Positions 3,001 to 26,814 are shown, counted from the first letter of the stretch. The stretch: DNA of 64,000 nt from Malacoraja senta (GCA_038087875.1 CM075995.1:4094001-4158000); one strand, 5' to 3'. Notes: generated by a model from the sequence alone, not told the origin. Numbers and translations: made by a program.

Positions 3001-3147
3001 GAGAAGCAGAGAGGCTTTGAGATCGGCGGTGGCGGCAGGATGAGCGATCGTGAAATAGTGTTCAAAGTCACGTTTGAATACGTCCCATCGAAGAGCGATG
3101 TCTAAATCGAAAACGAGCACATCGGGCTTACGGGCAGAAGAGGCCAT
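1..3147 (-). CDS. gag-pol polyprotein with one frameshift at T-run 990-997
   Basis: ATG at 3147 (MASSARKP). ORF 925..3177 leaves frame after LVKK. The shifted frame continues KDTSWLW..CDASQFGLGA..YAQIEKELLA..ETDHQPL..ADTLSR..HRGHPG..CSTC with no stop to position 1 (manual translation). Confidence 0.9.
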
Positions 3148-3230
3148 AACAAAGAAATAGGAGGGCGGGGGAAACAAAAAACTGGGACAAAATTAAATGA
3201 TAAACCGATAAACAGGAGGCGCAAGGTAAG

Positions 3231-5896: not shown

Positions 5897-6244
5897 TGCC
5901 ATGGTGCAAGAATGGGAAATTGGCCTAACTGTGCCGCATGCTTCCTAGTTGATTATCTGAAGATTAGCAAGTCCACATAACGTCCCCTTCAAGCTGGATG
6001 TATTGGAGGAGAAATATCACTGACCAAACAGACCAACTGGAGGGAAACAACCACAAGAGTATTCTAAAGAGGATTGCAAGTGTCCCGTAGCCATGGCGAA
6101 GTGAAGAAGACAGACTAGTTCTCCAGCAGGGAGTAAACTGCTGACTGTTTTTTTACTGGTAAAATGCTCTGTGAGGACATCAATCTGTACACCATCCCTC
6201 ACAACCTCACCTTCCACTGCAGTTCTGAGGGAGATCCAACATTA

Positions 6245-6993
6245 TACCACTAGGGGGCGCAGCACAATGGCAGCCTGTCTGTATTTTCATCTTTTCTTGT
6301 TATTTTTAGTGTGTTTTAAAAGTTTGTGTTAATGTTCTCCGGTTTGTTTTAGGTGGGGGGTGGGGTAGGGGGTAGGGGGTCGGGGGAAACGTTTTTTCAA
6401 TCTCTTACCTTGCCGGAGATGCGATTGTTTTCCGGATTGTATCTCCGGTCGCTCTGCGGCCTAACATCATGGAGCTGGAGGCCTTGCATGGGACTGACTT
6501 TGAGCCCCACCGCGGGGACGTGGACTTACCATCGGAGCCGATCCCTTGCCTGGGATCGACGCTCTAAATGCGGCCTGCGGATTTCACCATCGACGAGCTC
6601 GCAATCTCGGGTAGAGACCGATGTCAGGAAGCTCCAAACGACGCAGAAAGTTCGACCAGCCCCGACCCGGGGTCGATCGCCTGGCGCGGGAAGCTGACAT
6701 CCCCCCGATACAGGAGCTTGATCACACTGACGCAGAGGGCCCGACCGCCGGCTACGGGAAGCAAGATGGTCCCGGCATCGGAAGGCTCTAGGCCCCCGAC
6801 CGCGGGAGAACAAAGAAGGGAAGAGATTTAACTTTTTATCGCCTTCCATCACAGTGAGGAATGTGGAGGAGTCAATGTGGTGGAAGTTAATGTTAAAATG
6901 TATTTTGTATGTTTTGTTGCTTTTTAATGGCATGACTGTATGCCAAATCAAATTCCTCCAAAACATGGCAAATAAAGTATGATTATGATTATG
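6245..6993 (+). mobile_element. Non-autonomous retroposon (SINE-like); second copy at 28908-30420
   Basis: atta TSD, AATAAA + (ATGATT)n tail, 3' hairpin at 6846-6883; aligns along its length to 28908-29520 + 30267-30420. Confidence 0.75.
6247..6260 (+). promoter_or_regulatory. CTCF consensus motif at the repeat 5' end
   Basis: CCACTAGGGGGCGC matches CCASYAGRKGGCRS; binding not shown. Confidence 0.5.
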
Positions 6994-7656
6994 ATTAGCA
7001 GAAATTCATCCAGCTGCTCCGAAGCAAGCCCTCCCTTCAGCATCAGTGAAGATTGTACTTTAATGCAAGACAAAACCAGAGCTTGGCCAATGTGGTTCTA
7101 TACCGGGGACTCGCCCGCCCCGGATGGAGGACCCGCGCCATGAACTAGAACCAGCCCGGAAGGCCCTGCTCACCCACTGCGAATCACGGGCCCATGAGAA
7201 CCCACCTGGAGGGCCGGTAAGCTGACCTGCTGCGGAGGCAGTGCAGTGCCTCGACCGGGGAGTGGGCCGCTGGAGGCCGTGCAGCAGCCAGGGACTTGGC
7301 TGGACCGGGCACCACTCCAAGATGCTGAGCACATGGACTGCACGTGGCCTACAGTGCAACAACTGGGACTTTAAAATGGTGCCAAACTGGCAACTCTGTA
7401 TACGGTCTCAATGTTCTAGTCCTATACACTTGTACTGTATCGGAGATGCTTATCTAATACTAGACTAAGTGGAACCCATTGGATCCCATGTTCACACGGG
7501 AGGGCTGTCCCCCAACGCAATATTCCACCTCTCCACCAATTCCAATATTGGTGACCAATGGGTGGGGGGGTTCTGGAGCACTAGTGTGGGTGTTGTGGGC
7601 CGAAGGGACTGTTTTCCAGAGGGCTCGTATGGACATTGTGCACCGAATGGATTCTT

Positions 7657-7826
7657 GGGCTGGCAGCTCAATCACTCAGGCCTGGTGGGCTGGCAGCTTA
7701 GTCACTCAGGCCTGGTAGGCTGGCAGCTCAGTCACTCAGGGCTGGTGGGCTGGCAGCTCAGTCACTCAGGGCTGGTGGGCTGGCAGATCAGTCACTCAGG
7801 GCTGATGGGCTGGCAGTTCACTCACA
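7657..7826. repeat. 30-bp minisatellite (~5.5 copies) inside the Helitron
   Basis: gggctggcagctcagtcactcagggctggt units. Confidence 0.9.
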
Positions 7827-8172
7827 GCTATTCCTTGAAATTCCATTTCAAGCAGAGGACAGGCCACGAAATTCCATTTCATAGCATTTCAAGCAGAGTG
7901 CAGGCCACCACATTCAATTTCATAGCATTTCATGCAGAGTGCAGGCCACCACATTCAATTTTACTTCGGAGTCACGTGAGTGCTGCCAGCCCGCATGCGC
8001 GTCATATCGTTTATCGCATTGCGCAACGACTGGCTGGCAGGCGCGCTGCTCCGCCAGCGGTAAGTTTCAAACCTGAAGGTAAGTTTTCAACTTATTTCCA
8101 GGTTCTGTTTTTTCCTTGCAGGAAAGCTCTTCACAGCGTTTCCTGCTGGATATAATATACGCCGCAGGGAAT

Positions 8173-9007
8173 ACAATACAATACAATACGGTTTTATTCG
8201 TCACATTGCACATAAACTGCAAGTGAAATGAATTTGCCAGCAGCGGTACAATGATAAAGAACACACAAAAACACAATAAAAATTTAACACAAACATCCAC
8301 CACAGCATTCATCACTGGTGGAATGTTCAAAATTTGGCCATTCCTCCTCCATTTTCCCCCGTGGTCGGGACCTCAACTCTCCGCAGCCGCAGTTGCGGGC
8401 GTCCAGATGAGTGAAAGTCAAGGTAAGTCCTGAATCGGTGCCTTCCCCACCGGAGACCACGGCTTCAGGTTGGTGTTGGCCGCAGGCCGGCAGTCGGTGA
8501 TTTAAAGTCCCCGCCGCGCCGCAGCCAGAAGCACCACAGACTGCAGGGCCGGCGGTCGAAGCTCCCCTCCAGGGACCCCGCTCCCAATGGTAAGTCCCCA
8601 CCGCGCCCGCAGTAGAAGTAGGCCGCGGGCCGGCAGTCGGAGTGGAAGCTTCTTCTTCCCCCGTGTCCCCAGCGAGGGATCCCAGGCTGAGGACGCTGCG
8701 CCAGCAGGAGCTCTGCAGACTGCGGCTTCAGGCTGCCGGCTGCCGCGGGCCAGCGAACGGAGCGCTCCCCTCCGGCGACGGCTCGCCCGCTCCACGCCGA
8801 GAGTCTGCGCTGCGCCCACGCTGCGCCCACCGCTGAAGCCCCGGGCACGTCTCCGGGAAAGGCCGCACTGTTCCTTGCTGTTAGGCCACGGGGGAAGCGA
8901 CATGAAAAAAAGTTGCCTCTCCGTGGAGGAGGCGACCGAAGCGGTTTCCCCCTTAATCCCCCCCCCCCCCACATCACCCCCCACACAAGACACACAGAGG
9001 AACTCTT
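8173..9007 (-). mobile_element. SINE-like retroposon inserted in the DIRS 5' region
   Basis: gaat TSD (8169-8172, 9008-9011); minus-strand AATAAA + (TATTG)n tail. Confidence 0.65.
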
Positions 9008-9009
9008 GA

Positions 9010-9500
9010 ATCCCGGCCGCACTGTGGGGAACCGGTTATGACCGCAGGGAATCCTGGTCACGGACCGCAGGGAGAACCGGCTATGGATCGCAGGGAATCC
9101 CGGTCATGGACCGCAGGGAGAACCAACTACGGACCGCGGGGAAGCCCAGTCACGGACCGCGGGGAAGCCCGGTCACGGACCGCGGGGAAAGACCGGCTAC
9201 GGAGACCGCGGAAGTGCGAGTAGACTGCGGCCGTCAGGTTCGCTACCCGAGTCACTGACAGTGCGGTCAGCAACTTCCGGGTGCCTCTTGAATCCGCGGT
9301 GGTTCCCCAGAAAGGGAGTAAAACCAAAAGTAAGACGGATAGGAACCGCAGTTGTTCCCCAGAAAGGGAGAAAAGCCAAGAGTAAGACGGATAGGAACCG
9401 CAGTTGTTCCCCAGAAAGGGAGTAAAGCCAAGGGTAAGATGGATAGGAACCGCGGTGGTTCCCCAGAAAGGGGGTAAAGCCAAGAGTAAGACGGATAGGC
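9010..9500. repeat. Tandem repeats in DIRS ORF1: ~23-29-bp ggaccgcgggga units (9010-9200) and ~52-bp units (9290-9500)
   Basis: ggaaccgcagttgttccccagaaagggagaaaagccaagagtaagacggata x4. Confidence 0.85.
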
Positions 9501-10603
9501 GCAGGTCTCCTCGTGGCCTGCTGCAGCACCTGTTTCAAGGCAGCTTACAGATCTCCTGCTCTGTGGAGGGGAGTGTGAGGGGTCAGTGCGTAACTGACTC
9601 CAAACTGGGAAGGATGTCCGTGGAACATAATATTGTTCCTGAAAATACCGGCAGTGAACAGCGCTATCTGGGATGACATTGGAGGGGGCATGAAAATCCA
9701 GGAGATAAAACTCCAACAAATGTTTTTAATTACTGGCCTGGTGTTGATGTACAATGCACACTTCATAATGAACTGGAACGCCATCAGACCTGCCTTACAA
9801 CCAAATTTGCAGGCTCATGTAAGGCCAGCAATGTCCAGCCGCCGAATCTTCTCTTCGAGGAAGACCTATCCAACAGGTAAGACCTGGATGAGGAAGCAAA
9901 GCTGTCGGACTAATCAAGGTACCAACAACGAGCAAAGCTTCATTTTTTCGGTGACATCACACCCCACGTCTCCATCGGCAGTAAGCGGTTCACTGAAGCT
10001 GGGCAAAGGTCTTCCAGGCCAAGGCCTCAGTAAATATATGGAATCCACGCACCCCAGCAGTCCTTCTCTCCAAACTAAGGACAGAAATAGAACCCGCATC
10101 AGTGGCCTTTGGGCTTACCATAGGACCACCGGTAACCATGGGTCTGGTTCTTTCCAAAACATGGGGTAGGTGGACCATTTCCAAGTTGGTAATATTTACA
10201 CTTGTTTTTGTAAAAAATAACAATAATAACATGAAATTAGGTTATACTGCACAGTATACAAGGTTTCCAAGCAGGCTTCCGGGCCAGGATTGCCTTTTGA
10301 GACGGATAGGAACCTCGGAAATATGGCCAGAATTGTCTTCCGAGACAGGCTCGGAATAACAGGCGTGGCCTGATCATTGTGAAAGTTGGTGGAGGTCGGT
10401 TCATCCTTGATTTACCTCGCATGCGCAGTATAGACATTTCAGCATAGGAAACTTCGTTACTGTCTAACAACTGATTTCCATAGGATCTTTATGGCATTCA
10501 GTTCCCATTCACAGGGATAACCGGAGATATTTGAAATTTAACTGGATGGGCCAATAATAACAGTTAAAGCGTTGCAAAATGGGCTACCTTCAGCTCCCAG
10601 GAC

Positions 10604-10920
10604 TTGCTAGCGCTACCGGGGGCACCAACATCAAGACCCGGAGCGTGGCCTTGCATCGCCCTGCGCGGCCTTAATGGCAGCGGGACATATTTACCATCGC
10701 CCGCCGGGAGCTTTGACTTTGACATCGGGAGGAGAATGGGGAGTGCAGGGGAGAGACAAGACTTTGCCTTCCATCACAGTGAGGAGGAGATTCACTGTGA
10801 TGGATGTTTGTGTAAATTGTGTTGTGTCTTGGTTCTTTTTACTTGTTTGTATGACTGCAGAAACCAAATTTCGTTTGAACTTAGGTTCAAATGACAACAA
10901 ATAAATTGTATCATTGTATC
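10604..10920 (+). mobile_element. SINE-like insertion interrupting the DIRS RT
   Basis: Lies between GLPSAPR and FTKLLK; perfect 12-bp hairpin at 10771-10803; AATAAA + ttgtatca tail. Confidence 0.7.
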
Positions 10921-12040
10921 ATTTACCAAATTACTAAAAACCAGGGCTTGGGCTGCTCAGAGCCCAAAATCACTTGTTATGGCCTATCTGGAAGATATTC
11001 TAAATGCTGTATTTTGCTAAAATTAACTGTTTCAGTCGCAAGCTATATTTGAGATTCTCATCCATCCGGTTAAATTTAAGTTGATACCAACTAGAGTTAT
11101 TGATTATTGGGATTTACCTTTAACTCTATTAATTTGTCTGTGACTCCGCCCTGGGGCAAGAGATTAGAATTAGTAGAAGCGCATCAAGTGACCAGTGTAA
11201 TTGGCAATATAGTGGCTGTGCTTTTCAGCAACGCAATTTGGGCCTTGCATTATCAGAACTTACAAACGTGCAAAGGACCAAGCTCTTTAGTACCATTGAG
11301 GTCTTTGTTAACAGACCTATGCTAGTACCAGCTGAAGCTATCAAAGTCACAATGGTGGCCGAACAGTATTCAGCATTGCTAATAACTTTTGGTCAGTAAA
11401 TCTTCAGTTATATTACAACCTGATGTTAATGCTCAAAGATGGAAAATTACTAATACCATCTCTAGTTATGGAGGCAGATGCGATTTGCATGAGTTACCAA
11501 TTCTTCAGTTATATGGTATCAACTACCTGTAGACACTTGGTGCATTCTATGGGTTAAAGCTTATTGTGCGAATATGCATAATCTGCATGCTCAACTCCAA
11601 GTTGATACACTTTGGTGGTGGCATATATTAATCACATGGGTGCAATCAACTCAGTATCCTGTGATAGTTACATAACCTCATTTGGCGCTGGTGTATCATC
11701 ACGTAAAATTGCATGATTCATTCACTTGCAGACTCTGAGAAGACCGTTCCTGCGGCTCGGGTTGTCAGACCGAACCATGGACGTGCTCACTGCAGATTGC
11801 AGGGATAGCATCAAAAAAGCAGTACATTTCCTCATAAGTAGATGGGAAGTATTTTGTTTAAATGCTAATATTACATATAATTCGGCACGGATGACTGACG
11901 TCTTGAAGTTCAGTTTTATATGGGTCTTTGACAATCATTAAGTTAAAGTGCCATTAACTGTGCCAAACGTGCCTTCGCATCATATTGGCTGCGGGGAGCA
12001 GAATCCACTCTGTCGGGTCTCACCCTCTGATATCTAGATT

Positions 12041-12640
12041 ATGAAGGGTATCTTCAACTCAAAACCTCCCAGGCCCAGGTACGCAGAGATATGGGATGTT
12101 AACATTGTGCTAACGCCGCTTCGCCGGTGGGCTCCAGCTACATCCCTGTCCTTGGTCAAACTCACTTACAAAGTGGTTATGCCCATGGCGCTGAGTTCAG
12201 CGCAACGGGTCCAGTCATTGCATAAGCTGTGACTGGACAGGATGATTACATCTGCAGGCAAAATAACATTTTATGTTTATGACTTAGTCAAGCAGAGTAG
12301 TCCAGGGGCATCAGGTCTCAAACTAGATTTGTTGACATATCCCATGGTCCTTCGGTTGTGTGTGGTCACACATCTACACCAGTATGTTAAGGTCACTAAG
12401 AGCCTTAGAGACTCTGAACTAGCAATGTTTGTTAGTTACATAAAGCCTCATGAGAAGGTATCAGTACAGACCATCTCCATGTGGTTAAAACGGGTTCTGG
12501 CTTATACAGAACACTGACATTTTCAAATCTCACGCCACCAGGGCTGCAACAACATCAGCAGCAGGGTTATGGACATTTCGCTGGACCACATCCTAGTGGC
12601 TGCAGGATGGTCAAACGGACGATCTTTCCAAACATTTTAG
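12041..12640 (+). pseudogene. DIRS tyrosine recombinase remnant
   Basis: WDVNIVL, ALSSAQRVQSL, FKSHATRAA, DHILVAAGWS, with stops and frameshifts. Confidence 0.8.
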
Positions 12641-12874
12641 AACTAACCCATTGCCAGACCGGGGGTATTTGCCAACTCTATTTTAGGTTCTGTTTTATAG
12701 TTTCCTCCCGGTTGAGGGGGGTTACTATTATCATTATTTGTTCATTAAAAAGCATCAACATGTCTATATCTATGTCATGTCTGAATGCATTATTAATGTT
12801 CACATCCTTGGTCAACTGATGCAGTGTGACGCATGGACTAGTTTCCACGGCATGAAATCACAGAGCTTTGAAAT

Positions 12875-12986
12875 CTTCACGTAGTCACTCACGTGACTCC
12901 GAAGTAAAATAGTAAGATTAAACGAGAACTTACCAGTTTGAAGTTTGATCTTTATTTTATGAGGAGTTACGATGAGGGATTACGTG
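12875..12986 (+). repeat. DIRS internal complementary region (ICR)
   Basis: Reverse complement of the left end joined to reverse complement of the right end (13130-13206, 1 mismatch in 77 nt). Confidence 0.9.
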
Positions 12987-13894
12987 CCCTCCACTCCCAC
13001 CCCTCTTTCATAAAGGTCAGCTGGTAGTTCTAGTTTCTCGGATCTTACTATATTCAGTTCAGCAACTGTTATCTGTGATTTCACATCGCTGCTTTGAAGA
13101 TTGACGCGCATGCGGGCTGGCGGGCTCTTCACGTAATCCCTCATCGTAACTCCTCATAAAATAAAGATCAAACTTCAAACTGGTAAGTTCTCATTTAATC
13201 TTACTATTTCATAGCATTTCAAGCAGAGTGCAGGCCACCACATTCAATTTCATAGCATTTCAAACAGAGTGCAGGCCACCAAATTGCCAAACAACTCATT
13301 GCATTGTCATTAAGGGCTAACAAATCATTTATTGCAAGTACATTGCAGACTCACAGTTCAGTTGATTCACAACCTAGAATAACAGTTGTGGACTCTCCCT
13401 CGCGATCTTCCAGAGTGACTGACTCACGTCCAGGCATCCGGGGTTCCATAGTCCTGCCCCCCTCCCCCCGGAAGAGGCGTTACCTTCATCGTGGTGATTG
13501 ATAGGCGTACGGACCAATCAGCTGATCTCAAGATTTTTTAAACACACATAACTTTTGTATTTTTCATCGATCGGAAAAGTCCTCGGGGCTGCCTCAGCGG
13601 AGGAGAACTGTGCGTAAGATGGCCAAAAATCATACCGATATAGGGTAGCGTTTTTTCTAAAATCAATATAGTGCGCAGACAGGAAGTGGTCAAGATGAGA
13701 CTTTTAGTTATATAGATGTATCTAAGTGCTTACGTATAATGATACATATACTGAACAGTATAAAAAAATGAATTTCCCTGTACCTCTATACCTGTGAGAA
13801 ATAAAGTACCATACAGCACCATAGAGCCAGAATTTGCATCTTCAGCTGAAAACAAAGATGATATCTTCTGAACAGAAGAATGGACCACACCTAC

Positions 13895-14590
13895 CACCAA
13901 ATTGATAAGAGTGAAAGAACCACAGACTTAACTGGCAAAGTGAGCAGCCCATAGATGTACACAAGCCACGGTGGAATGAAGAAGACAGACTTGTTTAAAG
14001 TCAGCAACAAGCAGAGAGCAAGACTTACCTGGTGACACACTGTGAGGGCAGCAATCTGTGTGCCATCATTGCCAAGCTGAACTGACCAAAGAAACAACGG
14101 TGCACTATCCATGGACTGCAAGAAGAAACCGCAAAGGATTTCCATTGAATTAAAGTTCCCACTAATTGTCAAGTTCCAAGTAATCTGCACTTCACACTGG
14201 ATGAATTGGAGGGAAAATATCCCTGACCAAGCACGCGTGAAAAGTTGACCAGAGGGAAGAAACCACAAGAGATGACTAAAGAGGACTGAAGTGCCCTCCT
14301 AGCCATGGTGTAGTAAAGAAAGTGGACATGTTCAAAGTTAGCAACCTGCACAGAGCAAGACTTACCTCATGACACACTGAGGTCAGTAATCTGTGTGCCA
14401 TTGCTGTCCAGCTGACTGCCACTACAGCTCTGAGGGAGACCCAGCATAACCAGAAATTCATCCAGACCCCCTCCACACTCTCCTTCCAGTGCCTTGTGTA
14501 GGATCTCACACTGCGCTGAAGGACCAACCTGCCCTCTCAAGAGTTCGGCAATCATGGATGTACAGGTAGCTGAACTTTGCCTCTCCAGGT
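13895..14590 (+). pseudogene. H3: Histone H3-derived units B (13895-14082) and C (14217-14590)
   Basis: N-tail DNA; then gagcaagacttacctggtg...aatctgtgtgccatcattgccaag (EAYLV..NLCAI.AK); then gctctgagggag..ctctccttccagtgccttgtg..accaacctg (ALRE..LPFQRLV..TDL). Confidence 0.75.
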
Positions 14591-14689
14591 GAAAAAGAAG
14601 ATAGGTGAGTTCCACGTGAACAGGAGAAAGGCCGCACCTGTGTCACAGAACTACCCAGTGGATTACCAGAGGTAGTTCTGAATTGCAAG

Positions 14690-15083
14690 TAGGCAGACAG
14701 AAGAAATGGGGGGGATGTTTCACACCTACTTCTTATGCCAGGGAACCAGGCAGGGGGGTGGAGGAGCTGGCGATGATGGCAGACACTGGGCAAAGGGCCA
14801 TTTTCAAGATGGCGGTGGACGGAGGAGAGGATCAGTCCCACCAGGACAATTGGGCCTTTAAGGCCTAGATAAGACTGCACTCTTAAGAACTTTGTGTGCG
14901 CCAGAAACGTGACAACTCTTTTTATATTGTTTCGGTGAAGTCTACTATTACACTACAATCGTTGCACTTTTGTATTTGTCCAACAATTGTGCTTATCAAT
15001 AATATGATTTTACTGGATTGTATGCAAAACAAAGAATTTCACTGCCCCTAGGTACATTGGTACATGTGACAATAAAGTATCAT
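14690..15083 (+). mobile_element. SINE-like retroposon
   Basis: 3' tail gaatttcactg...catgtgacaataaagtatc similar to other tails in the window. Confidence 0.5.
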
Positions 15084-15125
15084 TTTGGGCACTACATCTG
15101 AGGAAGCATGTGCGGCTCTGGAGAG

Positions 15126-15975
15126 GGACAATAGACAATAGACAATAGGTGCAGGAGTAGGCCATTTGGCCCCTTCGAGTGTGATCATGGCTGATCATCC
15201 CCAATCAGTACCCCGTTCCTGCCTTCTCCCCATATCCCCTGGACTCCGCTAATTTTAAGAGCCCTATCTAGCTCTCTCTTGAAAGCATCTAGAGAACCTG
15301 CCTCCACCACCCTCTGAGGCAGAGAATTCCACAGACTCACCACTCTCTGTGAGAAAAAGTGTTTCCTCGTCTCCATTCTAAATGGCTTACTCCTTATTCT
15401 TAAACTGTGGCCCCTGGTTCTGGACTCCCCCCAACCATCGGGAACATGTTTCCTGCCTCTAGTGTGTCCAAGCTGAGGAGGTCCAGAGGAGGTTTTCAAG
15501 AATGATGCCAGGAATGAGTAGGTTAACCTATGATGAGCGTTTGTCGGCACTGGGCCTGAACTCACTGCAGTTTGGAAGAATGAGGGGGGACCTCATTGAA
15601 ACATACAAAATAGTGAAAGGCTTGGATAGAGTGGATGTGGAGATGATGTTTCCACTAGTGGGAGAGTCCAGGACTAGAGGTCATAGCCTCATAATTAAAG
15701 CACGGTCTTTTAGGAAGGAGATAAGGAGAAATTTCTTTAGTCTGAGGGTAGTGAATCTGTGGAATTATTTGCCACAGAAGGCTGTGGAGGCCGTCAATAG
15801 ATATTTTGAAGGCAAAGATAAATAGATTTTGATTAGTACAGGTGTCAGAGGATATGGGGAGAAGGCAGGAGAATGGGGTTAGGAGAATGGGGGTCATGAT
15901 TAAATGACGGAGTAGAATTGATGGGCCGAATGGCCTAATTCTGCTCCTATCACTTATGAGCTTATGACCTTATGA
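15126..15975. mobile_element. Two CR1 3' fragments in opposite orientation (15126-15472 minus; 15473-15975 plus)
   Basis: GESRTRGHSL..FFSQRVV.LWN.LPQ motifs; (ATTGTCT)n tail. Confidence 0.85.
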
Positions 15976-16082
15976 TCATCATAATCTTTATGCCTGCTAG
16001 TCGACTGAAGCACAGGCTCTGAGTGATGTTGACGTGAGCAAAATCTTTCTAAAAGCAAATAGTGACCAAATCAAAGGATGTG

Positions 16083-16814
16083 TTTAAAAAGGAACTGCAG
16101 ATGCTGGAAAATCCCAGGTACACAAAAAAATGCTGGAGAAACTCAGCGGGTGCAGCAGCATCTAAGGAGCGAAGGAAATAGGCAACGTTTCGTGCCGAAA
16201 CCCTTCTTCAGACTGATGGGGGGTGGGAGGGGGCGGGGAGAAGAAAGGAAAAAGCAGGAGGAGGAGCCCGAGGGCTGAGGGAGAGCTGGGAAGGGGAGAA
16301 GACAGCAAGGGCTAACAGAATTGTAAGAATTCAATGTTCATGCCACCAGGATGCAGACTCCCCAAGCAGAATATGAGGTGCTGTTCCTCCAATTTCCGGT
16401 GGTGCTCACTCTGGCCATGGAGGAGGCCCTGGACAGAGAGGTCGGATACGGAATGGGAGGGGGAGTTGAAGTGCTGAGCCACCGGGAGGTCAGGTTGGTT
16501 AATGCGGACCGAGCGGAGGTGTTCGGCAAAACGATCGCCAAGCCTACGCTTGGTCTCACCGATGTAGATCAGCTGACATCTAGAGCAGCGGATGCAATAG
16601 ATGAGGTTGGAGGAGATGCAGGTGAACCTCTGTCGCACCTGGAACGACTGCTTGGGTCCTTGAATGGAGACAAGGGGGGAGGTAAAGCGGCAAGTGTAGC
16701 ATCTCTTGCGGTTGCAAGGGAAAGTGCCCGGGGAGGGGGTGGTGCGGGAGGGAAGGGAAGAATTGACAAGGGAGTTACGGAGGGAGCGGTCTTTGCGGAA
16801 GGCAGACAGGAGGG
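16083..16814 (-). mobile_element. Penelope-like element 3' part: GIY-YIG endonuclease + pLTR, 15-bp TSD
   Basis: NLIYCIRCSRCQLIYIGETKRRLGDRFAEH..GMNIEF; aaatcaaaggatgtg at 16068-16082 and 16815-16829. Confidence 0.9.
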
Positions 16815-16871
16815 AAATCAAAGGATGTGCTCATCATAGACTGCAAGAACACTGGATGAATCAGAAGGAAA

Positions 16872-17510
16872 ATGTCCCTGAACAGATTGTGCACAGACTG
16901 TGGGAACAAGACTTACTTGGTGATGTACTTTGTTTTCCCCCTTTCCCCCGTCTCCCTCCACAGCGGTCCACTATGTCGGGTCCTTCATTGTCTATTGTTC
17001 TTCCCCTCCCCCCCCCCCCCCCCCCCTCACTGCGGTCCCCACACGCCGGGTCCTCCTTTGTTCCTTCCATCGGCAGCGGCGTCCTCATCCCACGTGATCC
17101 GTCCTTTGTCCCGTCAGTCGGTTGTCCCCATCGGCCGCCGCGCCGACCTCTCCACTATCGCCGCCGGGTCCTCTCAGGATGCCTGCGTGGAGCCGACCCT
17201 GCCAAACTGACCTGCCGCTGCTGCTCTGAGGGAGATCCAACATTAGCAGAAATTCATCCAGACACTTCTCTATTGAGAGTTCTCACTTCCATCACCTAGA
17301 TCAGGAGTTCATGCTGCACTGTAAGCCAGACCTGTGCTCCCACAACTCTTCCCACCTGCAGTCCAACGAACCTACATGGTAGCGCTGTTTGAAGACACTG
17401 ACCACGAAGCGAACCAGATCCCCATTCCCGACACATCACTGCAAGGATACGCATAAAACTTTCCTGATTTTCAGCCCAGCAAAGACTCTTTTAAAGCAAC
17501 AAAGAGCTAT
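16872..17510 (+). pseudogene. H3: Histone H3-derived unit D (interrupted 16935-17185) with degenerate stem-loop/HDE
   Basis: ATG at 16872; gctctgagggagatccaacattagcagaaattc; tacatggtagcgctgtttgaagacact (YMVALFEDT); caaagactcttttaaagcaac then AAAGAGCT at 17501. Confidence 0.75.
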
Positions 17511-18098
17511 GACCAGCATTCTTTAACCCGTGTTTTCTCTTTATTTGTCTGTTTATTTATTGATTTTCAATGCCTAATTGCATTCGAGACATTACTAGTT
17601 GAGTACATCATAACTAGCTCGGCGTCATTTTACTGCACTATCGCCATATACCTTGATTCCATGAAAATCCCTGTAAATATTGGTTGATTTATTAAAGTAA
17701 TGGTACTGCCTTGGAGGCAGTGCAAAATAAGTCTCACTAGCTGGTTTTGAGACTGGTGCTGCTTGTTGTCATCTCAGACAACAGTGCATAGTGGCGTTGC
17801 CTCACATTGTCCCTAGTGTGTGTAGGTTAATGTACAGGGCGATCACTGGTCGGTGTGGACTCTGTGGGCCAAAGGGCCTGTTTCTGAACTGTATCTCCAT
17901 AAAGTATAGACTAAAGCAAAGAATGCATTTGGTCTGCATCTTCCCCATGGAGATGTTTCAGAATACTTCTCATGTTCTTTCACATTGCCTGACCAGGAGT
18001 TGCTCTGACAATTTTGTCCCCATTCTCTGGAGACCTGAACACCACAAGCAGACAGACAAAATCTGTTTTGGTGAAGGAATGGGGAATGTTTCAACAGG

Positions 18099-18745
18099 AA
18101 GAATGTCCTTCCTCAAATTTGAAAACCAAAACTGCACACAATACTCCAGGTGTGGTCTCACGAGGGCCCTGTACAACTGCAGAAGGACTTCTTTGCTCCT
18201 AAACTTAACTCCTCTTGTTTTGAAGGGCAACATGCCATTCGCTTTCTTCACTGCCTCCTGTACCTGCATGCTTACTTTTAGTGAGTGATGAACAAGGACC
18301 CCCAGATCACTTTGTACTTCCCCATTTTCCAAATTTGACACCATTCAGATCTGCCTTCCTGTTTTTGCCACCCAAGTGGATAACCTCACATTTATCCACA
18401 TTAAATTGCATCTGCCATGCATCTGCCCACTCACCAAACCTATCCAAGTCACCCTGCATCCTCATAGCATCCTCCTCACAGTTCACACTGCCACACAGCT
18501 TTGTGTCATCTGCAAATTTGCTGATGTTACTTTGAATCCCTTCATCTAAATCATTGATGTATATTGTAAATAGCTGTGGTCCCAGCGCTGAGCCTTGCGG
18601 TACCCCACTAGTCACCGCCTGCCATTCTGAAAGAGACCCGTTAATCCCTACTCTTTGTTTCCTGTCTGCCAACCAATTTTCTATCCATGTCAGTACCCTA
18701 CCCCCAATACCATGTGCTCTAATTTTGCCCATTAATCTCCTATCC
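18099..18745 (-). mobile_element. CR1 RT fragment
   Basis: [30 protein letters not shown]. Confidence 0.9.
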
Positions 18746-19542
18746 TGCCCATACTGCATGAAGAAACCTCACGGAAGACGCCTCCCTGAAGGCCGCGGTG
18801 GCAGACGCCTCCTAGAAGATCATGGAGAAGCCAAGGCCGGAGCCTCATGGGTCGGAGTCGGAGCCCCATGAGTTAGCAGAGCCCGGAGACATCCCGAGAG
18901 GACCCGGCGACGATAGTGGAGAGGTTGGCAATGATAGCACCGTCAGACGGACGAGGACGGATACGTGGGAGTGAAGGGCCTGTCACACTTACGTGACCTT
19001 TATAGGCGACTGCCGGCACCCGGCGACCAGAAAGACGCTACGACTCTTTGGAGACCTCTCACGACCTTAGGAGACCTCTCACGACCATGCAGGCGGTATG
19101 GTCGTGAGAGGTCTCCTATGGTCGTGAGAGGTCTCCAAACAGTCTTTCTGGTCGCCGCTGAATTTTCAACATGTTGAAAATGTCGGCGACCTATGACGGG
19201 TGCCGGCTGTCGCCTGTAAAGGTCGCGTAAGTGGGACAGGCCCTTGAGGGCGCCACTGCCGGGTGAGAGGAACATAGGACACGGCGTGGGGGAACTGCCC
19301 CTTGAGGGAAGGGGAAGAACAATGAACATTGGAGGGCCTGGCATGGGGGGACTGCTGTGAGGAGGGGGAGTGACTTCCCTTTCTGTACTTCCTCCCTCCC
19401 CAACCTTTGCACATCCCCAATCCTGGACTTTCCACTCGTCACTTTAATTTCATGTTCCATGTATCTTGTTGTGTTTTATGACTGTTGGCAGACCAGTTTC
19501 CCTCCTGGGATAAATAAAGTTCTATCCCTATCGTATTGTATT
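18746..19542 (+). mobile_element. SINE-like retroposon containing a MITE; inverted fragment of the same family at 16935-17185
   Basis: gagaggacccggcgacgatagtggagagg shared with the reverse complement of ~17150-17180; AATAAA tail. Confidence 0.6.
18975..19244. mobile_element. PIF/Harbinger-type MITE
   Basis: TIR agggcctgtcacactta / taagtgggacaggccct; TGA TSD. Confidence 0.85.
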
Positions 19543-19965
19543 ACAAGGTTAGGACCCTGTTACTGCATTATCACCACATTAAAATCATTGTAACTACTGC
19601 TTTACATGTTAAAGTTATAGTGCAGGGACTTAAACATTGACTATTTGTCGGAAATTTGCCTCAAAATGGGACTGTAAAATAGTCTCAGCCACTGTGTTGA
19701 AACCGTAGGGCTGTTTCTAGAATACTTGCCTGTTGAGACAAGTTAGTATATTAACAATGACAAATCAGGGTTATTTTGGAATCATCTTCCTCCGATTCTC
19801 TGGCTGCTTCACAACAGGTGCATTTATTGGATAAAATCTTCCTCATTTTCTGTTCAAAGATGATATTTTAAGAGCTACTGAAAATAGCAAAGACCTGCTT
19901 TCTTCTGCCAGGTGATTTACATTTTTTGACTTCACTTTATAATTTTTCAAAGCATATTGAGGTGA

Positions 19966-20230
19966 GGAAAATCTCCCTGCAAGCAAATGGTGACCAAAGG
20001 GAAGCTCAAGGATACGTTAGTCATGGATGGTAAGAAGAAACCTCACAGTTACTGGACTGACACCATTGATCTCAGGAAGATCTTGTACGATGAAAAATCT
20101 ACTGAGGTACTCCTCCACAAATTGCCCATTTAGTACCCGTGCAAGGGATTGCTCCAGACATCAATGTAGATGCACATTCCCAGAGCTTAGCCAATATGGA
20201 TCTACAGGGAGCCAGTCTTACATCTCCAGA
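19966..20230 (+). pseudogene. H3: Histone H3-derived unit E (canonical order)
   Basis: GKSPCKQMVTKGKLKDTLVMDGKKKPHSYWTDTIDLRKILYDEKSTEVLLHKLPI aligns without gaps to H3 G13-F67 (26/55 identical by hand count). Confidence 0.9.
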
Positions 20231-20371
20231 TAAGCAGAGGATAATGGATCAGTGTCGCACGAACTGAGGAATGGGCCCCACCTGTGCCACGTTTCTTCCC
20301 AGCGGATTATAGGAAAATTGACAAGCTCCAAGTAATCCACACTTCACACTGGATGAATCTGTGTGTTGAAA

Positions 20372-20663
20372 ATGTCCATGAACAAGCAGATCATCCACAA
20401 ATGGACTGGAGAGTAGCAACCATGTGAGTAACTGGTGACATAAGCAGACTACAACTGTGCATTAGCCATGGTGGGGTCCAGACAGTCATGTTCTCCATCT
20501 GGGATCCGTTAGAAAGCTAGACTTACCTAGTGATGCTCTGTGAGACATCAACCAGTGAATTATGCGTGCCATTCTCATTGATGACCAGTAGACTCATCAC
20601 ATGTGCAAGTATACACATACGCTCTTCCTCACATTCAGCCAAACAAAGGCTCTCTTAAGAGCC
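20372..20663 (+). pseudogene. H3: Histone H3-derived unit F, internally deleted, with histone 3' stem-loop
   Basis: MSMNKQIIHKWTGE vs MARTKQTARKSTGG; jumps to the YLV..ED segment; ends in the stem-loop. Confidence 0.8.
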
Positions 20664-20676
20664 ACTGAAAAGAACT
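20648..20676 (+). terminator. Replication-dependent histone mRNA stem-loop + HDE-like element
   Basis: caaa GGCTCT-CTTA-AGAGCC actg aaaagaactg. Confidence 0.75.
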
Positions 20677-21157
20677 GCGACCAGCTTTCTTCTTCCCATG
20701 TTTTGTCTTTTTTCTTTTCTTTATACGTCTTGATTTTTAATGCATGATTGTGCTCTATTAAGCATAATGTATGTGCATCGCATCTAACTCAGCGCCACTT
20801 TACCGCAAAACAGAGCATCGGCCAGTGTTGCGACTGTTGTGTTGATTCCTCAGAAAATAATACATTTGCTCTACATCTTGCCTCATGAGACATATAAGAA
20901 TACTTATCATGTTTATTCATATTGCCAGACTGGGGTAGTTAGAACATTTTTTTCCCAGATTCTAGAGACCTGAACATTATGAGCAGATGGACAGAGTACA
21001 TTTTGGATCTTCAGCTGAAATGGGCTATGATTTGGGCAACTGCCATGGAGAAAGAAAGGGGAACGGTCCTCCCCTGGGTTGCATGTTTCCAGCAGATTAA
21101 AGGAAGATGATTAAGTTCCGAGCAATCCACACTTTACGCTGGATAAATTGGAGATAA

Positions 21158-21920
21158 TATTCTCTAACCAAATAGATTGTGCTCAGGTTGAGCAGAAGAA
21201 GGGAACTTCACAAGCAACTGGTGACTAAAGTGGCCTGCATGTGTACCACAGACAAGGCAGGGTGAAGAGGACAGACATGTCCACCATCTGGATCCTTCAG
21301 GGAGCAAGTCTTAATGATCTATGAGGGCAACAATCTGTGCACCATTCCTGCCAAGTTGACCTACCACTGTAACTCTGAGGGAGAGCTAACATGCCCAGAA
21401 ACTCATCCACACACTCCGCTACAAACTCTCAGGTATCAGGGGTTATGGGGATGAGGAGAATGGGGTTGAGAGGTACAGATAGATGAACCATGATTGAATG
21501 GTGGACTAGACTTGATGGGCCGAATGGCCTAATTCTGTTGAAAAAAACACACCCGTCTCAGCTTAAGACCTACAGGAAGCAGGACTTACCTGGCCATGTT
21601 CTACGAGGGCATCCATCTATGCGTCATCCCTACCAAGGTGACCTGCCACTGCAGCTCTGAGGGAGGTACGTTACCAGAAATTAATCCATCCATTCCTTCG
21701 TAAACTCTCGTTCCAGCACCTGGAGCTGGAGATCGTGCTGTACCGCAAGAAGATCTACGCTCCCAAAACTCGCCCGACATGGACCCCACAGGCCAGTGGA
21801 ATGTTCCTCCACTAACTACCCTTCCAAAACCTGGTGCAGAAGATTGCATCAGACATCAATAGATGTGCACTTCCAGAGCTCATCTAACATTGGTCTACAG
21901 GGAGTAAGACTTGCGTCTCC
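21158..21920 (+). pseudogene. H3: Histone H3-derived units G/H (CR1 tail inserted at 21431-21540)
   Basis: KQLVTKVA; YEGNNLCTIPAK; RKLSFQHLELEI; a second LPFQNLVQKIASD..FQSS..LQG. Confidence 0.8.
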
Positions 21921-22079
21921 AGATAAATAGAAGAGGATAGGTAACTGCCACAGGGACAGGAGCATGGATCACACCTGTGTCCCAGGACTTCCCGGTGGAT
22001 TAAAGGAAGATCATAAAGTTATTAGTAATCTACTCTTGACGATGGATGAATTCAAAGACCTGGAGATCTGAAAATCAAT

Positions 22080-22770
22080 GATCAACACTGATCAAGAAGG
22101 CTCACCTGCGTTCAACACTGATCAAGAAGGCTCACCAGCGTCTCTTCTTCCTGAGGAGACTAAAGAAGGTCCATCTGTCTCCTCAGATTCTGGTGACCTT
22201 CTACCGCTGCGCCATCGAGAGCATCCTTACTAACTGTATCACAGTATGGTATAGCAACTGCTCTGTCTCCGACCGGAAAGCACTGCAGAGGGTGGTGAAA
22301 ACTGCCCAACGCATCACCGGTTCCTCACTCCCCTCCATTGAGTCTGTCCAAAGCAAGCGATGTCTGCGAAGGGCACGCAGCATCGTCAAGGACTGCTCTC
22401 ACCCCAACCACAGACTGTTTACCCTCCTACCATCTGGGAGGCGCTACAGGTCTCTCCGTTGCCAGACCAGCAGGTTCAGGAACAGCTTCTTCCCTGTGGT
22501 TGTTACCCTACTTAACTCTGCACCGTGGTGATTGCCAGTCACCCCCCCCCCCCCCCGACACTCCTTCCCCCAGTGACTGATCTCCCTCCCCCCCCCCCCC
22601 CGACAATTGCACTATTGTTACTGTATATACATATATATATATATTTTACTGTTCCATTATTCTGTGTTCGCACTTCTGGGTGAGATGCTAACTGCATTTC
22701 ATTGTCTCTGTATTTGTACACTGCACAATGACAATAAATTTGAATCTGAATCTGAATCTGAATCTGAATC
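22080..22770 (+). mobile_element. Rex1/Babar LINE 3' fragment
   Basis: LIKKAHQRLFFLRRLKK..FYRCAIESIL..LPSGRRYRS..SFFP; (TCTGAA)n tail; short tandem duplication at the 5' end. Confidence 0.85.
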
Positions 22771-22913
22771 ACGAGATGTTGGACAAAATTGGTTTGGGAT
22801 CTTGGAAAAGTAAAATAAATTGGGTGACTGCCACAATGAAGGTGTGGGTTATGGGTCACACCAGTGGAAGTTCTCCGTAATCTTCATGTTGTGGTGGATG
22901 AATCACAGTGTAG

Positions 22914-24749
22914 ACGTTCCTGACCAAGCAGGAGGCATCCACATCCACAGTAGGAAATGATTTGGATGAAGGGATTCAAAGTAACATTAGCAAATTTGCA
23001 GATGACACAAAGCTGGGTGGCAGTGGGAACTGTGAAGAGGATGCTATGAGAATGCAGGGCGACTTGGACAGGTTGGGGGAGTGGGCAGATGCATGGCAGA
23101 TGAAGTTCAATGCGGATAAATGTGAGGTTATCCATTTTGGTAGCAAAAACAGGAAGGCAGATTACTATCTAAATGGCATCAAGTTGGGAAAAGGGGAAGT
23201 ACAATGGGATCTGGGGGTCCTTGTACATCAGTCTATGAAAGTAAGCATGCAGGTACAGCAGGCAGTGAAGAAAGCGAAAGGCATGTTGGCCTTTATAACA
23301 AGAGGAATCAAATATCGGAGCAAAGAGGTCCTTCTGCAGTTGTACAGAGCCCTAGTGGGACCACACCTGGAGTATTATGTGCAGTTTTGGTCCCCTAATT
23401 TGAGGAAGGACATTCTTGCTATTGAGGGAGTGCAGCATAGGTTTACAGGTTAATTCCTGGGATGGCGGGACTGTCATATGCCGAGAGAATGGAGCAGCTG
23501 GGCTTGTACACTCTGGCGTTTAGAAGGATGAGAGGGAATCTCATTGAAACATATAAGATTGTTAAGGGCTTGGACACACTAGAGGCAGGAAACATGTTCC
23601 CGATGTTGGGGGAGTCCAGAACCAGGGGCCACAGTTTAAGAAAAAGGAGTAAGCCATTTAGAACAGAGACGAGGAAACATTTTTTCTCACAGAGAGTGGT
23701 GAGTCTGTGGAATTCTCTGCCTCAGGGGGCGGTGGAGGTAGGTTCTCTGGATGCTTTCAAGAGAGAGCTAGATAGGGCTCTTAAAAATAGCGGAGTCAGG
23801 AGATATGGGGAGAAGACAGGAACTGATTGTGGATGATCAGCCATGATCACATTGAATGGCGGTGCTGGCTCGAAGGGCCAAATGGCCTGCTCCTGCACCT
23901 ATTGTCTATTGTCTATTGTCTATTGAAAAGGTCTGTACAAGGAATTGTTGATTAAAGCCACCTACTAAAGTTTACCCCAGCCATGGCGAAATGAAGAAGA
24001 CTAATCTCCACCAGCTAGACACCGTGGCTCTTGCAGAAAAGTGGCACAACCAGAAATCCACCCAGCCACTTCCTCAGTTTGAGGAACGGTCTCGACCCCA
24101 AACATCACCCATTCCTTCTCACCAGATATGCTGCCTGACCCGCTGAGTTACTCCAGCATTTTGTGTTTACCTTCGATTTAAACCAGCATCTGCAGTTCTT
24201 TCCTGCACACTCCTCAACACTGTTTCCACGCTATATCTCCAAAGTTTGAAGATAGGTACTACCCGAACGTTTAAGAAACATTTAGACAGGTACATGAATG
24301 GGATAGGTTTAGAGGGATATGGGCCAAATGGGTGTCAAGGGTTATGGGGAGAAGGCAGGAAAATTGAATTGGCAGGCCATGATTGAATGAAGAAGTAAAC
24401 TCGATGGGCCGAATGGCCGAATTCTACTCCTATAACGTGAATTTGTGAAATCTAGGCAGGTAGGACTAGTGTAGATGGGACATGTTGGCCGCTGTGGGCA
24501 AGTTGGGCCGAAGAGCCTGTTTCCACGCTGTAAGATTCTGTGACTATGACACAGCTCTCCTTCTAGTGCCTGGTGTAGGACATCGCTCAGGACTTCAAGG
24601 CAGACCTGCTACCCACACATCGCCCATCATATCTTGCAGACCTGGTGATGCTTTGTCAGGACATTACCCCGTACACCAACCATGCCAAGCGGGTCACTGT
24701 GTACAAAGGCATCCAGGTTGTCTGACATATCCATGAGGAATACACCTAA
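22914..24749 (+). pseudogene. H3: Histone H3 pseudogene I, near full length, canonical order, in three pieces (22914-22957, 23925-24075, 24552-24749)
   Basis: TFLTKQEASTSTVGK / DTVAL..NQKSTQ / LSF*CLV*DIAQDFKADL..HAKRVTVYKGIQVV*HIHEEYT* vs H3 C-terminus; stop codon at the H3 position. Confidence 0.9.
22958..23924 (+). mobile_element. 5'-truncated CR1 LINE inserted in the H3 pseudogene
   Basis: KFADDTKL..HLEY.VQFWSP..FKRELD; (ATTGTCT)n tail; gaaa flanks. Confidence 0.9.
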
Positions 24750-24783
24750 ACCTCGCTCACACTCAGCCCAACAGAGGGTCTGA

Positions 24784-25061
24784 AGGGCCTGTCCTACTCG
24801 CCGATTTTTTTCGGCGACTGCCGGCATCATTAACTGACATATCAGGTCACCGAAAACATTGCGGCGTGATGTGGCGTGACATGGCGGTGATGCTGCGTGA
24901 CGCGGCGTGATGACGTATTGACGCGCGGTGTTTCCTCAAGTGTCGCAACATTATTTTTGTCGTCGCTGGATTTTGAAATGTTCAAAATATTTCGGCGACC
25001 CTGATACGTCAGTCAATGACGTCGACAGTCGGCGAAAAAATCGGCAAGTGGGACAGGCCCT
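24784..25061. mobile_element. PIF/Harbinger-type MITE inserted in a degenerate histone stem-loop
   Basis: TIR agggcctgtcctact / agtgggacaggccct; TGA TSD; rejoined flanks agagggtc-tga-gccactgaaaa. Confidence 0.8.
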
Positions 25062-25214
25062 TGAGCCACTGAAAAAAATAGTGTTCAGCTTTATTCCACC
25101 TGTTCTGCTTTCATTAATTTTCCCTATAAATGCGATAGATATTATATAATAAATAAATTTGTGTTAATTAACTGTGTCATTTTTGCCTTTTATGAATATG
25201 CAACCACACTAAGG

Positions 25215-25773
25215 AACAATTATGATGCAGCTGTGTAGGACTCTGGTTAGGTCACATCTGGAGCATTGCATGCAGTTATAGCCACCGCATTACAAGAAAG
25301 ATGTGGAGGCTTTGGAGAGGGTGCAGAAGAGGTTTATCATAATATTGTCAAAAGGATTACAGTTACAGGGAGAGGTCAGATACAATTGGATTGTGTCCTC
25401 TGGAATGTCAGAGGTTGAGGGGAGACGTTTTAGAAGTATATAAAATTATGAGAGGCATAGATAGGATCGATGGAACCTTTCCCCAAGGGTATAAATATCA
25501 ACACAAGAGGGCATAGCTGTAAGGTGAGAGGGGGAAAGTTTAATGGAGTTTTTTACCCAGAGCGGTGGGGACCTAGATGCATTAACAGGGGTGATGGTAG
25601 AAACACATACCATAGTGGCATTTAAGAGGGTTCTAGATAGGCACATGGAAGTGCAGGGAATAGAGGGATTTGGATCATATACAATGAGATTAGTTTAACT
25701 GGGCATTGTGTTCGTCAGAAGCATTGTGGGCCAAAGGACCCATTTCTGTGCTGTACTGTTCTATGTTCTATGC
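25215..25773 (+). mobile_element. Old CR1 3' fragment
   Basis: MQLCRTLVRSHLEHCMQ..YKKDVEALERVQKRF. Confidence 0.75.
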
Positions 25774-26082
25774 TAATTTCATTCCCACACTGACTTCCTT
25801 GTCTTTGAATTCTTACATTGTCCAACCATACCTATTGAAGGCTTGAGGATCATCACCTTCCCTTCAATCAAGGAACCTTGCAGCCCTCAGGCCTGGGCTA
25901 CCGAAAATCTAGGAAATAGGAAGGTGATGGGTTGGAAGACTTGAAGCATGACCTCCTGGTCTACCTCGCCCTCGTTGGGGTTCGCTCTGCCATTGAAGTG
26001 TGCCTTGCGTTGTTTTTATCCCAAGACCATTTTTATACCCGCTGCCTCCTGGCCAGCCCATACATTTTCCAGCAAAGCCTTA

Positions 26083-26309
26083 AGGGCCTGTCCCATTTTC
26101 ACGACCTAATTCACAACCTTTTTTACTCGTGGACATTTTCATCAGTCTAGAAAAACGCCCGGACCTCCTTGATGCCACAAGTACCTACGAATAGCATCAC
26201 GACCTACCTACGACCTCCTACGACCTCGTGACGACCATGCTGCGAGTATGACTCAAGGGCAAACTCGGCAGAGGTCGTGAATTAGGTCGTGAAAGTGGGA
26301 CAGGCAACT
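26083..26309. mobile_element. PIF/Harbinger-type MITE
   Basis: TIR agggcctgtccca..ttcacgacctaattcac / gtgaattaggtcgtgaaagtgggacagg; TTA TSD. Confidence 0.8.
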
Positions 26310-26814
26310 TTATGCAGTTGCTCAGTGGTTGAGGGCCATGATCTCGGGCTTCAACAGATCAATATCTTATTGAATAACAATATTTACAGTTCTGGATCAA
26401 TATCTTTCCTGGGACGCCCAGTCATGAGGACGTGTGGGGTAAAACATGTGGGATCTTGAAGCCATGTTTAGTACCAGCATCAACACAGAGCTACAGCACT
26501 ACAGACCAGGTTCTATAGTTTTAATGGAACATCTTCCACAGATACCCTTTCTGGTTATGAAACATCCGTTCCACTATCTTGCTGGATGAAGCATGATTAG
26601 CAACGTGGAATGTTTGCAGCATGCTAAAACAATTTAGACATGGATAGGATAGGCTTAGAGGGATATGGGCCAAATACAGGCAGGTGGGACCAGTGCAGCT
26701 GGGGCATGTTGGTCGATGTGGGCAAGTTGGTCCACTGGGTATCTTTCCACGCTGTGTGACTTGAAACTGTTTGGGGAGGTATGCTATACATCTTGCAGCT
26801 TTTGTTTGCAGCTT

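Follow-up and report, generated by a model that had tools for sequence, protein, structure and literature searches.

A decayed histone H3-only array in Malacoraja senta, probably an old branch of a dispersed H3-derived repeat family

Results

An H3-only array on C19

We analysed a stretch of 64,000 nt from the 1.94-Gb genome of Malacoraja senta (GCA_038087875.1, CM075995.1; C19:4094001-4158000), hereafter the window, in which positions are counted from the first base. It contains an array of about nine decayed and partly rearranged copies of the histone H3 gene, interrupted by repeats and accompanied by no other histone. The array is real and looks to have gone unannotated. We think it probable that the copies go back to a canonical replication-dependent H3, likely a stray gene with a damaged 3' end, and that unequal recombination likely multiplied it, for the most part once it no longer coded.

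Intact genes of the same genome served as references for H3, H4, H2A, H2B and H1, with four intact genes for H1. These genes lie mainly on C4152, C1545, C21 near 6.4 Mb, C3197 and C1080, and the own-genome family searches gave no intact-histone match on C19 (one of these searches covering the best 150 of 187 candidates). An H3 DNA profile (nhmmer) built from 22 own-genome H3 rows matched the window 19 times at an expectation value (E) below 0.1 and 12 times at E<1e-3; 18 of the 19 matches are on the plus strand within 6029-24756. The reversed window gave no match, and 20 local shuffles gave one at E<0.1 and none at E<1e-3, with a best score of 5.3 bits.

An earlier note, made from the sequence of the window, had proposed at least eight plus-strand units derived from H3, and both the strand and the number hold, with about nine units now counted. 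Searches with all histone types returned significant matches for H3 and no coding match for any other histone. The ungapped alignment that the note had read at 19966-20130 was recovered by tBLASTn at 19966-20127 as H3 residues 14-67 (48% identity, E 3e-11; own-genome H3, composition statistics off); the codon after this match is Ile for F67, followed by a stop. The peptides DIAQDFKADL and HAKRVT, placed by the note at 24552-24749, were found again in the translation of 24552-24740 (E 4e-4). Most of the proposed unit starts agree with starts of profile envelopes, near 6014, 13880, 14217, 20372, 21161, 21550 and 22914, the 5' pieces at 6014, 13880 and 22914 being weak when taken alone (E 0.1-3). 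The start at 16872 is supported by a common spacer (86% identity to 14194-14229) and not by H3 body, which matches at 17207-17403. Three short open H3 pieces gave no Pfam match when submitted alone.

The note had also seen no remnants of other histones, and this extends beyond the window: with 100 kb added on either side (264 kb), we found no match to H1, H2A or H2B, no H4 coding DNA and no H3 piece beyond the array. The sole H4 match, at 20626-20666, is confined to the stem-loop common to histone 3' ends, and an H4-derived tail was rejected on that ground. H3 coding DNA is well conserved and easily detected, and one might picture an ordinary mixed histone cluster in which H3 is the last member still recognisable. 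H4 is equally conserved, however, and left no coding match, and the DNA between units is accounted for by the spacer, 3' flank and repeats; such a cluster is hardly credible here.

Anatomy of the units

After removal of repeats about 5.5 kb remain. In them we count about nine units, together with eight copies of a non-coding spacer of ~170 nt, spacer S, which precedes H3 starts (the same eight copies trained its profile). Spacer S and the histone 3' ends present on four units are additions to the earlier note, and the units proved not to be collinear with each other (Table 1). Units 5 and 9 are the only ones collinear with H3, unit 5 without a break. Read by eye, three kinds of junction recur: from H3 nt ~115 to ~240, with small further losses (five units), from ~350 back to ~125 (five units) and from ~300 into the spacer (three units).

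Three of the four stem-loops are decayed or split. The best, in unit 6, scores 28.8 bits with Rfam Histone3 (cut-off 34, E 1.4e-4), and the C1 counterpart of the interrupted stem-loop of unit 9 is an empty site. The units are 48-78% alike in pairs and of unlike make-up, which is not the pattern of a satellite with homogenised monomers of even length. As for spacer S being a decayed H3 promoter, its profile gave no match to live upstream regions, and the reverse search gave weak matches at the 3' end only. Rfam microRNA matches at 19056 and 24811 were rejected, being far under the cut-off and inside inverted-repeat elements.

Table 1. Features of the H3 array and its flank (window positions; HDE, histone downstream element; H3 coordinates in nt)
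Feature	Position	Strand	Content
Spacer S before unit 1	5901..6013	+	Non-coding; last ~35 nt may be H3 5' untranslated region (UTR), link to live 5' UTR weak (E 0.005-0.9)
Unit 1	6014..7105	+	H3 ~1-116, then ~240-350, back to ~125-280; split by a repeat at ~6250-6995
Unit 2	13860..14080	+	H3 ~8-116 fused to ~280-350; 78.6% to unit 3
Unit 3	14088..14694	+	Spacer S, H3 1-113, ~276-349, ~123-287, another spacer S
Unit 4	16816..17700	+	Spacer, H3-start stub, insert ~16930-17185, H3 ~125-377, decayed stem-loop/HDE 17470-17514, 3' flank
Leftover 3' end	19809..19945	+	Decayed stem-loop/HDE 19864-19897 and flank; weak (13 bits, E 0.017)
Unit 5	19952..20218	+	Collinear H3 26-297, E 7e-31; without the common frameshift; sister of C1 copy
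Unit 6	20224..20690	+	Spacer S, H3 1-112 fused to ~289-411, stem-loop 20643-20688, HDE-like core 6 nt behind
3' flank	20691..21030	+	Also at 17520-18071 and on C1 (69-72%)
Unit 7	21032..21428	+	Spacer S, H3 10-116, ~266-348, 135-197; cut by a short high-copy repeat at 21430-21540
Unit 8	21560..22058	+	H3 ~274-348, 128-292, 182-283 repeated, spacer S; E 8e-19, 2e-10
Unit 9	22803..25211	+	Spacer; near full-length collinear H3 in 22914-22945, 23927-24072 and 24553-24749, repeats between
Inverted-repeat element in unit 9	~24765-25062	+	Splits the stem-loop; HDE-like core and flank of unit 9 follow
Low-copy non-H3 DNA common to C1 block	25774..26515	+	68% over 310 nt, 76% over 122 nt

Source gene

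At sites that distinguish canonical H3 from H3.3, canonical bases outnumber H3.3 bases by 199:34, 277:57 and 126:24 (against the three own H3.3-type genes), and codon 90 is ATG in three of six pieces and Gly in none. The pieces carry no introns and retain the downstream element and flank beyond the cleavage site. Judged by these bases, the founder was a canonical, replication-dependent, intronless H3 gene and not H3.3. Because the units are intronless and keep stem-loop, downstream element and flank, we take them to be DNA-level copies of such a gene.

A processed pseudogene ends at the cleavage site in an A-run, within a target-site duplication, a combination that we did not find; the window units have no A-run. 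One processed histone pseudogene of the same genome, L024 (C2 115.49 Mb), is likewise a dead, dispersed H3 copy with a stem-loop. Unlike the window units it ends in an A-run after the stem-loop, has a flanking direct repeat and keeps an open frame.

Among the reference loci, C3197:6634-7011 (L020) is an open H3 gene with three changes from the canonical sequence, including Lys9 to Arg. Two further H3 matches on C3197 score like L020, the one whose sequence was read. An H1-like frame at C1545 1.098 Mb (L032 / L009), seen as a 109-residue C-terminal piece, is perhaps a broken H1.

Decay and the order of copying

Compared with live H3, the 19 window pieces show 71% identity. Changes fall on the three codon positions at 209/805, 258/797 and 237/800 (p 0.059, no third-position excess), counts in which a base present in any live H3 was scored as a match, lowering the third-position figures slightly, and in which pieces with a common history are not independent observations. 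For non-CpG changes the figures are 149/656, 185/683 and 177/678 (p 0.25), 154 of 511 being synonymous (expected share 0.31), and the corrected non-CpG distance is 0.31. Of 52 indels, 41 shift the frame. Half of the CpG sites are changed, as against a quarter of other sites; G+C has fallen from 65% to 49%, and the observed/expected ratio (o/e) of CpG in the window is 0.19-0.33.

One lesion helps to place these events in sequence: near H3 nt 100 a single base has been lost from six of the seven window pieces that span the site, including collinear unit 9, and also from one C1 piece; unit 5 does not have this loss. A tree of nt 130-290, from which pieces with fewer than 85 aligned bases were excluded, groups units 1, 3, 4 and 8 (support 98) and joins unit 5 to 8b2 and a C1 piece (100), on short deep branches. 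Since one frameshift is shared by most of these pieces and the scrambled junctions recur between units, most of the copying is likely to postdate the loss of coding.

The earlier note had read the locus as a local amplification of a single H3 gene or H3 variant, now dead. H3 is indeed the only histone, and the array is tandem, dead and derived from one type of source gene. The rest of that reading is not supported: the bases are canonical and free of coding constraint, most copying followed the loss of coding, and the array is not local, having a paralogous block on C1 and related H3-only debris across the genome. A once-working H3 variant cluster that expanded as live genes would suit the two collinear copies, units 5 and 9, the star-like deep splits of the tree and the 12 of 32 non-CpG changes common to at least three pieces that are synonymous, slightly more than 0.31. 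This excess is small (about 10 expected) and does not amount to constraint on shared branches, and the common frameshift and junctions, the canonical bases and the placement of the related short tails described below, none of them in a live histone cluster, make such a history unlikely.

A paralogous block on C1 and the neighbourhood

At C1 355.225-355.237 Mb the spacer recurs together with one of the junctions, the 3' flanks and a further 1.4 kb of low-copy DNA, at 68-76% identity. The low-copy non-H3 DNA common to both blocks marks them as copies made at the DNA level. Particular C1 pieces match particular C19 units (73-75% for units 5 and 9), and from this pairing we conclude that the units had already diverged when the block was copied. 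Repeat insertions occupy differing sites in the two blocks. An own-genome search with 21040-22070 was overwhelmed by a short high-copy repeat (1861 candidates), and searches with 13830-14700 and 25760-26100 returned C19 only, missing the known 68% match on C1; more old arrays may therefore be hidden.

Of 547 candidate open reading frames (ORFs) on C19, 117 were scanned, and a neurensin/TMEM74 exon alone passed the Pfam cut-off. It lies about 108 kb downstream (L063:9317-9754, C19 4.227 Mb), closer than any other gene that was recognised, and provides an anchor for synteny. A related array on C16 sits between a 6-phosphogluconolactonase-like exon and adhesion G-protein-coupled receptor exons (33 of 444 ORFs scanned); among the ORFs scanned at the two loci we saw no common gene context. 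Elsewhere in the window, 925-3192 holds a 755-codon open frame on the minus strand, by eye of the long terminal repeat (LTR)-retrotransposon type, and 60764-61269 a tandem repeat with a period of about 31 nt. Immediately upstream of the window, broken gag/pol/integrase-like frames (L047, C19 4.084-4.094 Mb) look by eye like an endogenous retrovirus or LTR element.

A shortened 3' tail and a wider H3-derived family

In live genes an HDE-like core could be placed in 20 of the 22 H3 rows, at 17 nt behind the stem in 18, 16 nt in one and 13 nt in one (one gene is counted twice). In unit 6 and in two C1 ends this spacing is 5-6 nt. With 6 nt in place of 13-17 nt, U7 would be expected to cut inside the stem, and the founder would have been unable to make normal mRNA. 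A short-tail pattern matched the genome 20 times and a control not at all; the matches are on C19, C1, C16, C17 and C14, with a further set on C3, C4, C7, C10, C11, C21, C23 and unplaced contigs, and none of the 20 is inside a live histone cluster. A profile of 11 tails from outside C19 and C1 scores 42.5 bits on the end at 20648, as against 19.0 from the live-H3 profile.

A young block of more than 15 kb, with nested direct and inverted H3 pieces and the short tail, was seen on C9, C10, C12, C13, C15, C16, C17, C20, C21, C23 and unplaced contigs (L132-L175). A 501-nt probe from the young set found 138 candidate places, the best 40 of which were scored; they lie on 10 large and 6 unplaced contigs, with best identities of 85-95%, and many of them are less than 0.6 Mb from a contig end (exceptions on C10, C13 11.3 Mb and C21 2.9 Mb). 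In 400 kb taken from 17 young-set loci there are 127 matches to H3 coding parts, in both orientations, and none to other histones. We rejected an overprinted gene in another H3 frame of this family: the raw 36/23/19% by codon position gave p 0.16 with clades counted once and p 0.78 within clades.

Scrambled gene pieces in tandem on one strand, and a young family with nested inverted pieces at so many places, could suggest a non-autonomous mobile element, rolling-circle or foldback in type, which had picked up pieces of H3 and then inserted at C19, C1 and other places. The likeness of C19 and C1, however, runs on into low-copy flank without any defined end that we could find; the young blocks are alike over 15 kb to tens of kb, including ordinary repeats, and the one sharp edge seen among them lies at an assembly gap; and 49 young-block ORFs (of 123 candidates plus one) held no transposase or helicase. 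We regard a mobile origin as distinctly improbable.

Short-tail units with a wrecked H3 body at C16 5.666 Mb (L090:6360-6790) and C17 5.557 Mb (L111) have CpG-rich upstream DNA (o/e 0.85 and 0.81) with CCAAT-, GC- and TATA-like boxes by eye, and are candidates for transcription. A 30-nt near-palindrome is identical at L114, L115 and C16 5.6667 Mb, in CpG-rich DNA.

These relatives, together with the single strand of all window pieces and the good stem-loop of unit 6, are what would favour units kept as non-coding RNA or cis-elements, whether stem-loop RNAs binding SLBP or U7 or a source of small RNAs against histone mRNA. Set against this are the low CpG ratio of the window, the three ruined stem-loops and the neutral decay. 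Retention of that kind is very improbable, and the array is most likely inert. A broader proposal would start from one H3 in which 11 nt had been lost between the stem-loop and the U7 site, and would derive from it H3-like repeats across the genome, the arrays on C19, C1, C16 and C17 being old and the young block continuing to spread close to chromosome ends. Members on C16 and C17, keeping CpG-rich promoters of histone type, would make improperly cut, non-coding stem-loop RNAs which bind SLBP or the U7 small nuclear ribonucleoprotein and could tune histone mRNA processing. Taken as a whole, this proposal strikes us as improbable.

Discussion

An orphon is a histone gene copy that lies apart from the main clusters and whose flanks were copied as DNA. 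The array stands away from live clusters, has no other histone within the 264 kb and carries flanks copied as DNA; it also has the marks of a replication-dependent H3 pseudogene, namely H3 homology, canonical intronless sequence, a 3' stem-loop, disabling lesions and neutral decay. On sequence grounds we would class it as an orphon-type H3 pseudogene array and as an old branch of a family of H3-derived repeats that extends across the genome.

Its history may be pictured as follows. A stray, DNA-level copy of a canonical H3 with a damaged 3' end would have been the start. Internal deletions and duplications then built a scrambled unit, followed by several rounds of head-to-tail copying, as the common frameshift and the three kinds of junction suggest. 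Segmental duplication would account for the presence of an array block and 1.4 kb of flank on C1 as well, after which repeats inserted at differing sites in the two blocks and CpG decay lowered G+C. The C16 and C17 arrays and the young, much-copied block may go back to this founder lineage too, to judge by nothing but their 3' ends.

Several points weigh against this account. Some unit pairs and lineages are only 50-57% identical, a level to be expected if each had decayed from H3 separately; the earliest duplications may thus have involved intact genes, the deepest split may separate near-intact copies, and a single dead founder is unproven. The neutrality test suffers from pseudo-replication, the pieces not being independent, and its scoring slightly depresses third-position counts. 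Spacer S has no match in the C16, C17 and young-block loci, so their common descent with the window is read from the tail, ~55 nt; the coding-part tree does not firmly join them to it. The experimental paper on the tail, a study in mouse, concerns insertions in the pre-mRNA, whereas the change at issue here is a deletion of 11 nt.

Expanded H3-variant families such as primate H3.Y/H3.X are also H3-only multi-copy groups with many dead members. In the array, by contrast, no copy is open and nothing points to selection. Pseudogenes and birth-and-death evolution are well-established features of histone genes (PMC13525598, accessible part, which mentions neither sharks, skates nor orphons). Like the orphons and pseudogenes treated there, the window units are dead replication-dependent copies off the main clusters that decay neutrally; they differ in being of one histone type and internally scrambled, in having been copied again once dead, both in tandem and from one chromosome to another, and in the shortened distance from stem-loop to HDE that marks them.

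Signals of H3 alone on many chromosomes in fluorescence in situ hybridization (FISH) are described, in the accessible parts of the reports, for cobia and snappers (PMC4546756) and Podocnemis turtles (PMC5973585; see also PMC5599702), and ectopic recombination or hitch-hiking with repeats is proposed there as the cause (PMC4546756, PMC5973585). The parallel is H3 on many chromosomes away from other histone genes; those are probe signals, possibly of another kind, whereas the material spread here is sequence-resolved, broken H3. In the literature searched, which took in few subscription papers and no supplements, we found no description, at the level of sequence, of a family of scrambled repeats made of H3 alone.

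The array displays at sequence level a dead H3 turning into repeat DNA: scrambled, copied in tandem and moved between chromosomes. It offers a testable account of multi-chromosome H3-only FISH signals in some fishes and turtles (PMC4546756, PMC5973585), and a warning that H3 FISH signals and H3 read-depth counts need not mean additional genes. With its shortened tail the family carries a marker by which it can be followed from species to species.

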